Shown here: positions 39,881 through 48,120 of the stretch, one piece after another
How positions within the stretch are numbered: the first letter of the stretch is position 1
How the letters are laid out: every line of letters starts with the position of its first letter
Origin: a virus
DNA: 64,000 nucleotides
Reading direction: 5' to 3' (one strand)
UHGV virus genome: UHGV-0279745
The notes under the pieces: model-generated
Told to the model about the DNA's origin: nothing
The model's database searches: none
Seen by the model: the letters and a program-made list of their open reading frames with translations, nothing else
Made by a program: the position numbers and the translations under genes

Positions 39881-40489
39881 ATGAACGAAATTACATTAGT
39901 TCGTTTTCTTGAAGCGATGCAAAATGCAGAGCGCTTTTCGCATACGCCTTTATTCATTGACTTAATGGAAGAAGAAGTAGAGGGATTCCTGGCATACCCT
40001 CGCTTACGGGAATATTTTAAACGTAAAACACCGACTGCTTACGAAAAGTTGGTTTACGCGCTTGAGAACAGTACAACATTGTTAACGTCACCTTTTAAGG
40101 CGTTGGAGGCTTTAGACCCGGCTGGTACCACAAGTATCCCACAACGTGTCGTGTTCTACTATATCGACCACGATCGAATCAAAGCCGATGTTGTTAACTG
40201 GATCTCTGAAAACGCAGTTCCTGAAACACGCACTTTTAATCTCTGTCCTGTAGAAGAAGGGTGGAAGGTCGGTAGCCACTATTCTTACCCGTACCAATCC
40301 ATTAAATCGCCGTTTTTATACCCGGTTTATCTGGATGACGTTACACCTGGAAATTGTATCCCGGTAACAAATCTGATCTGTACATTGACGATGGAAGTCT
40401 TAGCCACAAAGGCGGGACAGGTTTGGGTAGAAAACACGAAGAACGTCGATTATTGGACTTCAATGGGTTATCACCTGTACACCAAATAA
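39881..40489 (+). CDS. hypothetical protein (202 aa)
   Basis: AAAGGAAAG RBS. Confidence 0.7.
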   Translation: MNEITLVRFLEAMQNAERFSHTPLFIDLMEEEVEGFLAYPRLREYFKRKTPTAYEKLVYALENSTTLLTSPFKALEALDPAGTTSIPQRVVFYYIDHDRIKADVVNWISENAVPETRTFNLCPVEEGWKVGSHYSYPYQSIKSPFLYPVYLDDVTPGNCIPVTNLICTLTMEVLATKAGQVWVENTKNVDYWTSMGYHLYTK

Positions 40490-40493
40490 CGTT

Positions 40494-40535
40494 TGGGAGA
40501 ACCTTCGGGTTCTCCCTTTCTTTATTTTTTTTTCT
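40494..40535 (+). terminator. rho-independent terminator
   Basis: gggagaacc-ttcg-ggttctccc followed by long T-run. Confidence 0.7.
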
Positions 40536-40569: not shown

Positions 40570-43074
40570 ATGCTAAAAGTTGAACGGATTATACTCAAAG
40601 GTTTTACGGGGATGGGATTACATGAAATTGAAACCTTCGATTTCACTATCCAGTCTCCGACAACAATTATCCTGGGTGGGAACGGCTGCGGGAAAACCAG
40701 TCTACTGTCTGTGTTCCTACCCTTAGCACCGGCTAAAACCGAATTCAGGGACGGCGGTTCTTACACAAACTACTGTTTAGTTGGCGATCAACGCTATCGT
40801 TTCAAAGTTGCCCGTAAAGGCAACTCTTTGGTTTGCGATATTGAGAACCTGACCACGGGGGCAAAGATCGTCGAGCAAGGTAATGCGAAAGTCTACAACT
40901 CCCGTGTTGAAGAAATCACAGGTATTACAAAAGAGATTAAAGAATTATTAAATGGTGAGGTGTTGTTAACCGATGCGGGAACCGAATTACGCCGCAAATG
41001 GTTTTACCGTTTAAGTACCTCTGATCTCACTTACGCGTTAGGGTTTTATCAACGTTTACGTAAAAACCTTACTGCCTTAAATGGGGGTATTGAAATCACC
41101 AGCCGTAAGATCGCCGAATTACGGACGCGTGTTATTGAGAACGAGGAAGAACGGCAGCAGTTAGCGACGAGATTAAAAGGTTTGGAATCGGATTTACGTG
41201 AACTGAACCGAGAAATCGAACAGTTACCAGGATTAAATCGTGCCGTCACCATCGAAACAATCCAAGCGTTATTAAACAGCTTGGGTCCAACCATCGACGC
41301 AATATTACAACATCGTGGTGGATTGCCTACTGATGAACAGATACTGGCCGCGCGACAAAACGAAGCGACGGCCCGCGAAGCCGTCGTGTCTACTGAAACA
41401 GAGGTATCGATGTTGAATAAAGACTTGTCGCTACTGATGGATGAGTCGACACGACAAGACTACCTGATGCGGAATCACGAAGGTCTCAAGAATACACTGG
41501 CACGTTTACGTGAGTTACTTACCAAATGGGACACCGAGCATCTCTTTCCGGGTTTATTTAACGACAACATCAATTTAGACCAACTTCGTGCGGCTACCGA
41601 CGCGCGTGTTTGGGGGCAACGGTTAGGAACAACACTGGACGCAATTCATTCAACCGAAAAACTTAATGTTTTGGAAGAACGGCTTCTGGTGATGGATCAA
41701 AAAACCGCAGGGTTGCGGGATAGACTCCAGCGAGTGGAGAACGTTTTACAGAATTTAAATCACGAACGTAATCACTACTTAGAAACAGCGGAAGTGGATT
41801 GCCCGCAGTGTCGGTTTAAGTTCCGTCCTGGCGTTACGCGTTCTTTACCTGAACTTGAGTCTTCGATTCGCGGACAACAACAGCAGCGCACGGAACTGCA
41901 AACGCAGTTAGAGACTCTATTACGCGATCGTGTTGAGTTAGAATCCGATGTAACTTATATGCGGCAGGTTCGTGAGATTGTACTGACGTATTCAAAGGAC
42001 CCGGTATTGAGCATGTTCTTTAAGCGTTTGCAAGAACGTAACGTTTTCACAGAATCACGTGAACAGTTCGGGAGTCTATGCGCAGCGTTTGACAGTGAGT
42101 TGTACTCTGCTATTGAGTACCATGAAACCCGTCAACGGTTAGTGAAGGCGGAAAAAGAATGGCAGGATGCCGTGGCGGCCGTTGGTAACGTCGATGGTGC
42201 TTTACAACAGAAAATTGCTTTCCAACAGTCACGATTAGGTAAAGCCACAGAGATGCTCTCAATGCGTCGTAGAGAGTACGAACTGGCTAACACGACACTT
42301 ACCTATCTGGTGAATGTTAAACGTGCTGTAGATGATTTCAGTGCGTTATTCGAACGGTTAGAGAGTGATGTTAAGGTTACGTTGACAAATACGGTCGTCG
42401 AGGAACTCTTACGTGCACGAGAAGGGAAGCTGGATGCTTTTACAACCGCACGCGAACGTTATCGTCAGATGGAAAATGAATTGAATCAGCTCAACAGTTT
42501 GGAACGCGAACTTGCTGACTTACAAGCCCAGCAATTCAATAACAAACTGATGATTCAAGCCTTCTCTCCAGAAAAGGGTGTACTTAGAAAGTATTTTTAC
42601 AACGCTATCGTTAGAATCACAGAGTTAATGACGCGTTATATCGAACAGGTCTGGACGTACCCCATGCGCGTTATGCCTTGTGACCTCACTGACGGCGATT
42701 TGGATTATACTTTTCCTGTCCAGCTAAAAACGCATCCTGAGCCTGTTCCTGACGTGCGTAAAGGGTCTAAGGCGCAGCGTGCGATATTTAATCTGATGTT
42801 CAGGCTGACTGCGTACAAAGCGCTGAAGTTGCATCAGTTTCCGTTGCTTTTGGATGAGCCTTCGGAAGGCATGGATGAGGAGCACCGTAACAACCTGGTC
42901 GGTTTTATTAAAACGTTAGCAAACTCGGGAGAATTTTCCCAACTGTTGGTAGTCTCCCACGAAGCCGAGGTTCATTCTAAACTTAATGAAGCATCGTACT
43001 GTGTCATCGAACCGGAAGGGGTGACATTGCCTGCGGTGTATAACGAAGGAGTAAAAATTGTTTATGCAAACTGA
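40570..43074 (+). CDS. SbcC/Rad50-like recombination ATPase (835 aa)
   Basis: Walker A GGNGCGKTS, long coiled-coil middle with CPQC zinc-hook-like motif, Walker B LLLDEPSEGMD, VSHEAE H-loop region; GGAGGTG RBS before ATG 40570. Confidence 0.8.
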   Translation: MLKVERIILKGFTGMGLHEIETFDFTIQSPTTIILGGNGCGKTSLLSVFLPLAPAKTEFRDGGSYTNYCLVGDQRYRFKVARKGNSLVCDIENLTTGAKIVEQGNAKVYNSRVEEITGITKEIKELLNGEVLLTDAGTELRRKWFYRLSTSDLTYALGFYQRLRKNLTALNGGIEITSRKIAELRTRVIENEEERQQLATRLKGLESDLRELNREIEQLPGLNRAVTIETIQALLNSLGPTIDAILQHRGGLPTDEQILAARQNEATAREAVVSTETEVSMLNKDLSLLMDESTRQDYLMRNHEGLKNTLARLRELLTKWDTEHLFPGLFNDNINLDQLRAATDARVWGQRLGTTLDAIHSTEKLNVLEERLLVMDQKTAGLRDRLQRVENVLQNLNHERNHYLETAEVDCPQCRFKFRPGVTRSLPELESSIRGQQQQRTELQTQLETLLRDRVELESDVTYMRQVREIVLTYSKDPVLSMFFKRLQERNVFTESREQFGSLCAAFDSELYSAIEYHETRQRLVKAEKEWQDAVAAVGNVDGALQQKIAFQQSRLGKATEMLSMRRREYELANTTLTYLVNVKRAVDDFSALFERLESDVKVTLTNTVVEELLRAREGKLDAFTTARERYRQMENELNQLNSLERELADLQAQQFNNKLMIQAFSPEKGVLRKYFYNAIVRITELMTRYIEQVWTYPMRVMPCDLTDGDLDYTFPVQLKTHPEPVPDVRKGSKAQRAIFNLMFRLTAYKALKLHQFPLLLDEPSEGMDEEHRNNLVGFIKTLANSGEFSQLLVVSHEAEVHSKLNEASYCVIEPEGVTLPAVYNEGVKIVYAN

Positions 43075-43409: not shown

Positions 43410-43538
43410 ATGACCACGATAAACGCTACGAATGTAGCGATATCCGCACTATACGACGCGGAACTTTCATGGGGTGGATTAATAATCACCACAGCCATAT
43501 TAGCCGCTGCGGCTTTCGTCATCGCGCGTTGGTTTTAA
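43410..43538 (+). CDS. small membrane peptide (42 aa), not in ORF track
   Basis: AGGAGCAGAAA RBS; hydrophobic C-terminal half GLIITTAILAAAAFVIARWF. Confidence 0.4.
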   Translation: MTTINATNVAISALYDAELSWGGLIITTAILAAAAFVIARWF

Positions 43539-43569
43539 TTTTACTTTTTTGCGTCTCTAAGGTTTGCAA

Positions 43570-44013
43570 ATGGAAATTTATTTGTTGAACGCATCTTCTA
43601 AAGTCGGTGAGCGACAAGCTGCCGATTTACTCAAACTACACTACCGTTACTTAGACCACCAGGCCACGTTACTGAAAATCAAAATGTCGGTGCCGAAGTT
43701 AAATGCGCGACAGCTGATCGAAGGTAACTGCATAGTTCTGGTGTATCAGGATGATGTCGCGGTAGGATACTGTAGTTATCGGAATCGTAACGGCTCACTT
43801 AAGATACGTTCGGTATACGTGCTCCCAGACCATCGTCAACGGGGTGTAATGAAAGAGATTTTCAAAGCAATTGCAGCTGATGAAGTTTTCGGCGAGATTG
43901 TTACTGGCATGTATGCGAAATGTAAAGAAGCAAAAGAGTATTTCATCCGACGCGGCTATCAGGCGGTTTACTCACGCGATCGTGAGTGGGTCGATTTTAG
44001 CAAAACATTCTAA
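43570..44013 (+). CDS. GNAT-family N-acetyltransferase (147 aa)
   Basis: Acetyl-CoA-binding motif A-like VYVLPDHRQRGVMKEIF; size typical of single-domain GNAT. Confidence 0.65.
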   Translation: MEIYLLNASSKVGERQAADLLKLHYRYLDHQATLLKIKMSVPKLNARQLIEGNCIVLVYQDDVAVGYCSYRNRNGSLKIRSVYVLPDHRQRGVMKEIFKAIAADEVFGEIVTGMYAKCKEAKEYFIRRGYQAVYSRDREWVDFSKTF

Positions 44014-44079: not shown

Positions 44080-44325
44080 ATGTTAAAATCGTACGGAGTG
44101 GGTGGTTTGGATACGAGTATTTGTTGGAAAGAATACGAACGTGCGAAAGCGTTCTTACAGCATCCCAATGTGGGGACAATAGGTAAGGTCTGTTTCGGCA
44201 AACCTTCACTGACGGCTTGTATCCAAGGGGCTTTAGGGACGTTGCCACCCGAAACACATTTCGAGCCTGAGGAGAATATGAATGTTCACAGAGAACCCAT
44301 CAATTTACGGCATACCGTTGAATGA
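44080..44325 (+). CDS. hypothetical protein (81 aa)
   Basis: GGAGAG RBS before ATG. Confidence 0.5.
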   Translation: MLKSYGVGGLDTSICWKEYERAKAFLQHPNVGTIGKVCFGKPSLTACIQGALGTLPPETHFEPEENMNVHREPINLRHTVE

Positions 44326-44650
44326 AATTGATATTCTGCAAATTTGTTATCAGTGCGGCGACTTCGGTAAGACACAAGTAACGCCGTTAGTTAAGCTTTT
44401 AGGTTACTTGCCTGAAATCGAGTTACCTTTTGTTAAACCTAGCTTAGTTCGTCGCGCATCGTGTCGCGAAGCTTATTTGCTCTGGAAACACAATATTTCA
44501 GTAGAGAAGGTCTGGGACCGTATGAACGATCATCAGTTCCGTGAGCAGGTCGTGCACACGCTTAACTTGGCACTGACTATGCAACGCCTGGGCTTACAAC
44601 ACGAGGGTTTAGAAGCGGCGGTCAAGCAATGGATTACGAAAAATCGATAA
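44282..44650 (+). CDS. hypothetical protein (122 aa)
   Basis: GAGGAG RBS; overlaps previous ORF. Confidence 0.55.
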   Translation: MFTENPSIYGIPLNEIDILQICYQCGDFGKTQVTPLVKLLGYLPEIELPFVKPSLVRRASCREAYLLWKHNISVEKVWDRMNDHQFREQVVHTLNLALTMQRLGLQHEGLEAAVKQWITKNR

Positions 44651-44737: not shown

Positions 44738-45235
44738 ATGTTAACGGTACGTAAAGAATCTGAAATTGGTAACGATCTTTTTAATGCGCCCGAAGACTAT
44801 AAAGTCGTTACCATTAATTGCGTAGGAGCGATGGGTCGCGGTATTGCACTCGCGTGTCGTGAACGCTACCCCAACCTTTACCAGGATTATCGTAAGCGGT
44901 GTCGTGAAAACGAAATTAAGATTGGAAACGTTTACGTTTACTCTGACGAAAAGTGTATCTTGCTCCCCACGAAAACCCATTGGCGCTTAAAGTCCCAGGT
45001 TTCTTATGTTACTGCGGGCATTACCGCACTAGCGGATTGTGCTGAGGATCTGGATACCAGCGTTGCTATCCCTCCACTGGGAATGGCAAACGGGTGGTTA
45101 GATTCCTGGGAAAGACAAGAAATCTTTTTGTGGCTTTACAAAAAACTTGAATCAAGGAGACAACACTACACGTTATACTTACCTGATAAGTTGTACCAAG
45201 AAGCAGAGTCATTAATTCCAAACTCTTTTAAATAG
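44738..45235 (+). CDS. macro-domain-like protein (~165 aa); start uncertain
   Basis: VVTINCVGAMGRGIALA resembles the macro-domain VNAAN...GGGVA motif; AIPPLGMANGWL resembles the second macro motif. Confidence 0.55.
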   Translation: MLTVRKESEIGNDLFNAPEDYKVVTINCVGAMGRGIALACRERYPNLYQDYRKRCRENEIKIGNVYVYSDEKCILLPTKTHWRLKSQVSYVTAGITALADCAEDLDTSVAIPPLGMANGWLDSWERQEIFLWLYKKLESRRQHYTLYLPDKLYQEAESLIPNSFK

Positions 45236-45335
45236 ATATTATCATTAGGGCACACAACAAAGGAGTATTAGCTGTCCGCGCCGTCATTTCGTCTTACGGA
45301 ATACGGAAATGTATAAATCCAACTGGAGAAACAAA

Positions 45336-46034
45336 ATGTTTCGTATCTTCTTTCTTTTACTGGTAACACTTTTCGCGTTTAACGCACAGGCGTCAACGTC
45401 AACGCCACATTCTAAGCATCAGCGTGAGTTTGCACAAATCCAACATCGGTTCGAAAAAGTCAGCCCGTTAATTGTGGAAATCTCACGAAAGCAGGGCGTT
45501 GATCCCAAGCTGATGATTACGCTGATTTATCGTGAATCGCGTTTTGATCCCAAGGCTTACAACAAAAGCTCACGAGCACATAGCCTGGTACAAATGCTTC
45601 CAAGTACCAAACGTAATCTGCTAAAGCTTTATGGAAAAGAATTAGGTCTTAGTCAGAACGCCGATTTGTATAATCCGCGCAACGCTGTTTTGCTGGCTAC
45701 CGCGTATGTTAAACATCTTGAGAAGGGGTTAACCAAACGACTCAAACGCAAGCCCACCATGGCTGAAATTGCGTTAGCTTACCACTGGGGTGAAAGTGGC
45801 GCTCACACGCGAATCAAAAGCAAATCTCGAGCAGCACAACGAGAAATGGCAGGCTTTATGAAAGACGCCGCGTTCTATAGCGCGAAAATCGATGTGCCTG
45901 TTGTTGTGGGCTCGGCCCCACGTCAGCTTGCGTTTGCGAAGAAAACACCACGTCAGATTCAACTGGCGGAAGTTAGTAGAATTTGGGATACGATAAACAC
46001 GAGTTTTCCAATCAATAGAGGAGTTACCCTTTGA
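45336..46034 (+). CDS. secreted lytic transglycosylase (SLT-domain) protein
   Basis: Signal peptide MFRIFFLLLVTLFAFNAQA; YRESRFDP, SLVQMLPST and AYHWGESG motifs typical of SLT domain; GGAGAA RBS. Confidence 0.65.
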   Translation: MFRIFFLLLVTLFAFNAQASTSTPHSKHQREFAQIQHRFEKVSPLIVEISRKQGVDPKLMITLIYRESRFDPKAYNKSSRAHSLVQMLPSTKRNLLKLYGKELGLSQNADLYNPRNAVLLATAYVKHLEKGLTKRLKRKPTMAEIALAYHWGESGAHTRIKSKSRAAQREMAGFMKDAAFYSAKIDVPVVVGSAPRQLAFAKKTPRQIQLAEVSRIWDTINTSFPINRGVTL

Positions 46035-48084: not shown

Positions 48085-48120
48085 CCCTACTCCTCCGGGA
48101 GTAGGGTTAATTCTTTTTCC
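48085..48120 (+). terminator. rho-independent terminator
   Basis: ccctactcc-tccg-ggagtaggg followed by ttaattctttttcc. Confidence 0.65.

Follow-up and report, generated by a model that had tools for sequence, protein, structure and literature searches.

The 64,000-nucleotide stretch of viral DNA analysed here (UHGV virus genome UHGV-0279745, hereafter the window) carries a stand-alone GNAT-fold acetyltransferase gene that is held under purifying selection, belongs to a small family confined to phages and is an accessory, not a core, gene of the SPN3US-like jumbo phages. Its product falls into no known GNAT subfamily, and the reading we favour, at a probability of roughly 0.4, is that it would act as an acetyl-CoA-dependent protein acetyltransferase on host or phage proteins, independently of the anti-DarT macro-domain protein AdfM that is encoded downstream. 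It is probable that the protein works as an acyl-CoA N-acyltransferase of one kind or another, and the chances that its target is a protein lie a little below even; its use of acetyl-CoA, its catalysis and its substrate class are all predictions from sequence. The gene and its surroundings, in window coordinates, are as follows.

40570..43074, + strand: SbcC/Rad50-like ATPase gene, ortholog of SPN3US gp186, at the head of the gene block
43410-43538, + strand: 42-aa ORF just upstream of the GNAT gene, with a hydrophobic C-terminal stretch, GGLIITTAILAAAAFVIARWF
43559..43562, + strand: AAGG, a putative Shine-Dalgarno-like element read from the sequence, 7 nt 5' of the GNAT ATG
43570..44013, + strand: GNAT-fold acetyltransferase gene, 147 aa, ortholog of SPN3US gp191, PHROG 3810
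43819..43863, + strand: codons of GNAT residues 84-98, VLPDHRQRGVMKEIF, at the end of beta4 and the start of alpha3
43878-43911: place of a 34-bp GNAT deletion in a natural relative (L003 6309-6310, on ENA contig k141_659670 of 224,967 bp; protein P0006, 3 contigs)
43942..43944, + strand: codon of the family-invariant F125, aligned to the general-acid Tyr of other GNATs
44080..44325, + strand: small ORF between the GNAT and macro genes, 81 aa, PHROG 28329/12626
44282..44650, + strand: small ORF between the GNAT and macro genes, 122 aa, PHROG 11720
44738..45235, + strand: DarG2-like macro-domain gene, ortholog of AdfM (anti-DarT factor macro)
45309..46034, + strand: SLT-domain transglycosylase gene, directly 3' of the macro gene

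The GNAT open reading frame runs on the + strand from an ATG at 43570 to a stop at 44013 and encodes a basic (pI 9.3), single-domain protein; the ORF listing stretches it to a TTG at 43564, but the orthologs begin at the ATG. Three Pfam GNAT models score above their gathering thresholds (PF13508, 32.2 vs 27; PF00583, 32.1 vs 20.7; PF13673, 25.4 vs 23.6), and PHROG 3810, annotated as 'acetyltransferase', matches the protein over its full length (E 1.7e-25, residues 2-145), which bears out the original prediction of a stand-alone phage GNAT with an acetyl-CoA-type motif. Taken together with these matches, the low dN/dS of 0.045-0.059 against four same-genus relatives (about 0.05) establishes a real gene under purifying selection. 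That the orthologs are acetyltransferases by name is already recorded in RefSeq and PHROGs, and PGAP labels the ortholog in relatives deposited as plasmids a 'GNAT family N-acetyltransferase'; in the text of the 2016 paper on the essential genes and virion proteins of SPN3US, gp191 goes unmentioned.

At the nucleotide level the window matches nothing in the phage collection, and it represents an undescribed genus of SPN3US-like jumbo phages, enterobacterial, uncultured and of ~225 kb. A tblastn search with the GNAT returns 53 phage records with at least 80% of the protein covered at 26-40% identity, all of them ~240 kb jumbo phages of Salmonella, Erwinia, Escherichia and Proteus, from the genera Seoulvirus (SPN3US), Erskinevirus, Machinavirus and Wellingtonvirus. 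Within the window's own genus, uncultured contigs carry the protein at 84-99% identity, and near-identical GNATs are found on contigs of 221-226 kb, some metagenomic and others from assemblies of E. coli, Salmonella and Shigella; one such sequence (P0007) alone occurs on 141 contigs from these sources. Within complete bacterial genomes, two relatives are labelled as circular plasmids, NZ_CP173450.1 (E. coli 98232 p98232-contig_4, 221,873 bp; locus L109) and NZ_CP134650.1 (Enterobacter ludwigii, 222,441 bp), with about 76% nucleotide identity over the macro-SLT region. A carrier state, or culture contamination, by a widespread and formally undescribed phage genus is suggested. Asesino, which lies in the SPN3US-like group, is treated as a nucleus-forming chimallivirus (PMC13309987).

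Orthologs in PHROG 3810 include phiEaH2 YP_007237764, Caitlin gp201 (YP_009292274), Stratton gp213, Huxley gp202 and WP_079772529. With the gp191 orthologs the window GNAT has in common full-length homology, the same block position and the residues L21, L28, R89, F125 and W140, which are invariant in the family, together with G66, which is nearly so. It differs from the Seoulvirus and Wellingtonvirus orthologs in keeping Gly92, replaced there by Lys and Tyr, respectively, and from the cultured-phage orthologs in lacking a C-terminal tail of 12-16 residues. When a profile of 42 members was compared with 1.84 billion cluster representatives, only 8 clusters were recovered at E < 1e-30 and five more full-length relatives between 1e-25 and 1e-17, beyond which lies a continuum of generic GNATs that match the core only. 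The contigs of the five distant relatives (P0063-P0067) were not found in IMG/VR or the JGI metagenomes, and cultured phages yielded no relatives of this type beyond the known family. The nearest neighbour of the GNAT in BFVD is the Wellington paralog.

The gene block is collinear in every relative examined, in the order SbcC/Rad50-like ATPase, tiny ORFs, GNAT, small ORFs, macro and SLT genes, and the GNAT keeps its position in five genera and in metagenomic contigs; between the GNAT and macro genes lie 2-6 small ORFs, which vary among relatives. At the head of the block, SPN3US gp186 is essential (PMC5105663). The ORF listing stretches the SbcC gene to a TTG at 40354, which would carry it through a strong terminator hairpin (40495-40516), and since the hairpin lies inside that extension the start is probably the ATG at 40570 (834 aa, as called in locus L003). 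PADLOC returns LmuB-like matches to the SbcC protein (E 1.3e-18), presumably because both have the SMC/ABC ATPase fold. The 42-aa ORF at 43410-43538 looks like a small membrane protein from its hydrophobic stretch, and in the E. coli 'plasmid' relative, too, a 42-aa hypothetical-protein gene (L109 2155-2283) lies a short way before the GNAT.

Hairpins of 9 bp, GC-rich and followed by T-runs, bracket the block from SbcC to ORF47141, at 40495-40516 (+ strand) and at 48085-48106 (both strands, hence bidirectional), and between 40516 and 48085 there is no strong intrinsic terminator on the + strand. Sites that resemble terminators number 21, about double the 9.2 of shuffled sequence. A sigma-70 promoter scan is uninformative, since SPN3US-like phages use their own polymerases.

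While single-sequence AlphaFold prediction of the GNAT was unusable (pLDDT 42), an AF2 model built on the 42-sequence alignment reached a pLDDT of 94.4 and shows the complete b1-a1-a2-b2-b3-b4-a3-b5-a4-b6-b7 GNAT topology. Motif A reads R89-Q-R-G92-V-M94, with R89 and G92 agreeing with the first two positions of the Q/R-x-x-G-x-G/A signature of the beta4-alpha3 loop and Met standing at the last. Where SSAT2, YjcF and archaeal Ard1 have their general-acid Tyr, the family has the invariant F125; the catalytic pair of RimI, Glu103 and Tyr115, aligns with G112 and F125. No acidic residue that could serve as a general base is conserved in the family alignment. In the core clade H24, Y25, Q31, G52, N53, Y67, C68, Y70, R71, R80 and M94 are at least 90% conserved, M94 being invariant there. 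Read as an enzyme, the protein would hold acetyl-CoA through the beta4-alpha3 loop (R89-x-x-G92-x-M94) and beta5/alpha4, and an amine substrate would lodge in a cleft bounded by the alpha1-alpha2 arm, by beta4/beta5 and by the beta6-beta7 hairpin, on which the invariant W140 sits. As an invariant Phe occupies the Tyr position, acetyl transfer would be direct, proceeding without a Tyr general acid.

The motif is less well preserved in sister genera. The Seoulvirus orthologs (SPN3US gp191, L001 5995-6483; P0033, P0040 and P0048) have the motif A RRRKTM, with no glycine, and carry no Pfam domain in the precomputed GNAT matches; canonical CoA binding may, judging by the motif, be in the course of loss in this branch. 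Wellingtonvirus-type phages have the GNAT in tandem duplicate (gp214/gp215, L005 5516-5971 and 5968-6450; also L006, L010, L013 and L014), the upstream copy having a more canonical RRRGVA and a Glu at the general-base position of RimI, and the downstream copy, which is the ortholog, a Tyr in place of the motif-A Gly. Since motif A is degenerate in these genera, some family members may be poor catalysts or none at all.

By analogy with Rac of phage LUZ19, which is active with a similar motif, such departures from the textbook active site need not be disqualifying. Among characterised phage GNATs Rac gives the best local similarity, 29% over 79 aa, and the likeness is limited to the part from beta2 to alpha3 (about residues 48-126; hhalign probability 64%, 57 columns). 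There, the motif A region of Rac, VLPRYRNSGVVREFI, shares with that of the window GNAT the pattern VLPxxRxxGV(V/M)(R/K)E, and the motif of Rac itself, R-N-S-G-V-V, likewise ends in a bulky residue. Rac is an active acetyltransferase of host proteins and requires its acetyl-CoA pocket for function (PMC7552054). Both it and the window GNAT are stand-alone proteins of about 150 aa from lytic phages with their own RNA polymerase, which SPN3US-like phages carry (PMC5105663) as phiKMV phages do. The two are members of different families, Rac of PHROG 3986 and the GNAT of PHROG 3810. To our knowledge, among the stand-alone GNATs of lytic phages Rac alone has been characterised as acting on host proteins; AcrVA5 is another GNAT of a mobile element.

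Protein N-terminal and lysine acetyltransferases (NatD, RimI, Ard1, HP0935 and Naa50) are frequent near the top of the matches to the window GNAT, with polyamine, tabtoxin, ArsN and aminoglycoside enzymes close behind. The likeliest substrate would in our view be an amine on a host or a phage protein, at either a Lys side chain or the N-terminus, and the enzyme may serve host takeover or counter-defence by modifying its target, much as phiKMV-type Rac does. Given that these phages bring their own RNA polymerases, such an enzyme could plausibly be used to disable host machinery.

More specific identities were sought among the known subfamilies. No NCBIfam family comes near its cut-off, so that a housekeeping assignment does not emerge from the profile search; PADLOC has no match for the GNAT and a PDB sequence search gave nothing above the family cut-off. 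RimI (TIGR01575) scores 15 bits against a cut-off of 86.4 and also fails on its catalytic residues, which leaves the name 'ribosomal-protein-alanine acetyltransferase', given to some orthologs in GenBank, without support. ArsN2 reaches 29.7 of the 125 bits needed, AAC(6') models match a single one of the 42 members, with E no better than about 5e-4, and the NCBIfam model for PaiA matches one of the 42 at E 0.0076; all of these were rejected.

The small-molecule enzymes among these matches bring us to an unlikely but substantial alternative, in which the GNAT acetylates a small-molecule amine, such as a polyamine, an amino acid analogue, an antibiotic-like toxin or a nucleotide-derived signal, and so alters host metabolism or neutralises the molecule. 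Weak matches, in profile and in fold, to the thialysine/diamine acetyltransferase SSAT2, PaiA-like Ta0374, the tabtoxin resistance protein, ArsN and phosphinothricin acetyltransferase point this way, even though no NCBIfam small-molecule family comes near its cut-off. A functional precedent also exists within the phage group, in that GNATs of phiEaH2 and Caitlin are reported to have spermidine N-acetyltransferase activity, which the SPN3US homolog did not show (PMC9992855). The enzymes tested there (YP_007237670 of phiEaH2 and YP_009292176 of Caitlin), however, map to other genes: in phiEaH2 the validated gene lies ~78 kb from the GNAT ortholog, and the window's genus has a separate ortholog of it, 49-50% identical, on the same contigs but outside the window. 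SPN3US-like phages have at least three GNAT genes each (in phiEaH2 also gp012 and gp020, L101 7555-7923 and 12619-13083; further loci L105-L108), the gp020 type being the experimentally validated spermidine acetyltransferase. The phage spermidine acetyltransferases resemble the window GNAT in size, fold and the LL-x-LH start of helix alpha1, but have canonical RSEGVG and FYERYGF motifs, unlike the window GNAT family. An hhalign comparison between the two families gives E 7e-12 over 129 columns that include helix alpha1; against a baseline of 101 generic GNATs this score ranks only 83/101, and no special relationship is therefore indicated. The window gene is thus not the spermidine acetyltransferase tested in SPN3US-like phages.

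It is decidedly unlikely that the protein is a GNAT-fold pseudoenzyme or ligand sensor, one that binds acetyl-CoA, CoA or a host protein without transfer, as PanZ/PanM does. The degenerate motifs of the sister genera aside, the window GNAT itself retains R-x-x-G, Rac works with a similar motif, and the match to PanZ is no better than those to dozens of active enzymes. Many active GNATs also do without the Tyr/Glu pair, which counts further against a loss of transfer.

That the gene is accessory can be seen from its gain and loss across the phage group. In CR5 (Derbicusvirus) the backbone from SbcC to macro-SLT is kept, other ORFs occupy the place where the GNAT would sit, and no member of the GNAT family is found anywhere in the genome. 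In one natural 225 kb genome the 34-bp deletion listed above frameshifts the gene after about residue 102 and leaves the macro gene intact, so at least this natural genome gets by without the GNAT, provided that the deletion is no artefact of assembly. Faster evolution than that of the neighbours, as a sign of an arms race, was considered and rejected, the GNAT being 39.6% identical to its SPN3US counterpart and the neighbouring genes 30-78%.

The macro gene, which the original prediction had placed ~0.7 kb downstream in the same orientation, does start on the same strand at 44738, after a gap of 725 nt. Its product matches NCBIfam DarG at E 2.5e-36, with just the macro half of that model covered (125.6 bits, below a 250-bit cut-off that is set for the two-domain antitoxin) and PADLOC DarG at E 3.8e-37, and in the alignment N27, which corresponds to N23 of PhiKZ gp104, and K79 are invariant. 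By sequence, then, it is assigned as an ortholog of AdfM, in the family of anti-DarT2 DNA ADP-ribosylglycohydrolases. AdfM enters the phage nucleus, strips the ADP-ribose placed by DarT2 from DNA and neutralises DarT2 alone (PMC13309987, 2026); ADP-ribose removal was shown for PhiKZ gp104, nuclear localisation for AdfM of PhiKZ, PhiPA3 and Asesino, the last from the same phage group as the window, and neutralisation of DarT2 in E. coli for PhiKZ AdfM by itself (PMC13309987).

This identity makes good one half of the earlier suggestion of a shared anti-defence module, in that the neighbour is an anti-defence gene, and leaves the other half, the pairing with the GNAT, in difficulty. If the two formed one module, the GNAT would acetylate DarT or another effector, or an ADP-ribose-related substrate for the macro protein. 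The genes are close and on one strand, both are present in every SPN3US-like phage examined, and their co-transcription is possible for want of a strong terminator, but such a transcript would also span the SbcC and transglycosylase genes, vertical inheritance of the whole collinear block could by itself produce the co-occurrence, and the ORFs in between are not constant. Macro homologs occur in 264 phage records. Among 80 diverse IMG/VR loci and a set of cultured examples, a GNAT within 2 kb of the macro gene on the same strand is confined to the SPN3US-like lineage and the Moabite/2050HW type, and FBKp24 has one by annotation and Pfam; about 65 other AdfM-like loci, Goslar and the PhiKZ-like phage U5 have no neighbouring GNAT. 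GNATs are otherwise rare at these loci, none of 150 distant ORFs being one. In Serratia phage Moabite the GNAT lies directly upstream of the macro gene with a 38-nt overlap (gp058/gp059, L015 3523-4432), and in 2050HW and Klebsiella phage FBKp24 (gp066/gp065, L019 2035-3423) a GNAT likewise directly precedes the AdfM-like macro gene; locus L092 is of this kind as well. In this type the GNAT follows genes for an RNA polymerase subunit and a helicase.

The GNATs of Moabite and FBKp24 have no specific relation to the window family, so that this second lineage gives a weak hint of pairing; by a rough estimate, chance adjacency in two of roughly 15-20 lineages would not be unusual. The pairing is lineage-specific and mostly explained by collinear inheritance. 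Adding that CR5 keeps the macro gene without a GNAT, that the genome with the broken GNAT retains it and that PhiKZ AdfM works alone, we consider a joint module very unlikely, and the AdfM identity accounts for the macro gene without need of the GNAT. Smaller still is the chance that PHROG 3810 represents a new jumbo-phage counter-defence class alongside AdfM, inactivating by acetylation a host immune effector, DarT for one, or acting on a NAD/ADP-ribose-derived molecule. Such a class might draw on the atypical active site, which lacks Tyr/Glu but has H24, C68, R71 and R80 unchanged across the core clade, and the independent Moabite/FBKp24 adjacency would then be convergent evidence.

Least credible of all is a tRNA-linked acyltransferase, either a TacT/AtaT-like enzyme whose acetylation of aminoacyl-tRNA would shut off translation or a Mom/Fem-like enzyme that would take its acyl group from aminoacyl-tRNA in place of acetyl-CoA: the basic charge of the protein, the invariant R71 and R80 on beta3 and beta4, the degenerate CoA-pyrophosphate loop of several genera, a weak PDB sequence match to an aminoacyl-tRNA-dependent peptide synthase (E 0.037) and the precedent of Mom as a tRNA-dependent phage GNAT (PMC13219725) speak for it, but membership of the TacT/AtaT/KacT toxins, judged by specific similarity and an adjacent RHH/HTH antitoxin gene, was rejected.

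As it stands, the window GNAT adds one accessory member to the list of jumbo-phage GNATs. It would matter more if its substrate proved to be a host defence or takeover target, chimalliviruses being candidates for phage therapy.
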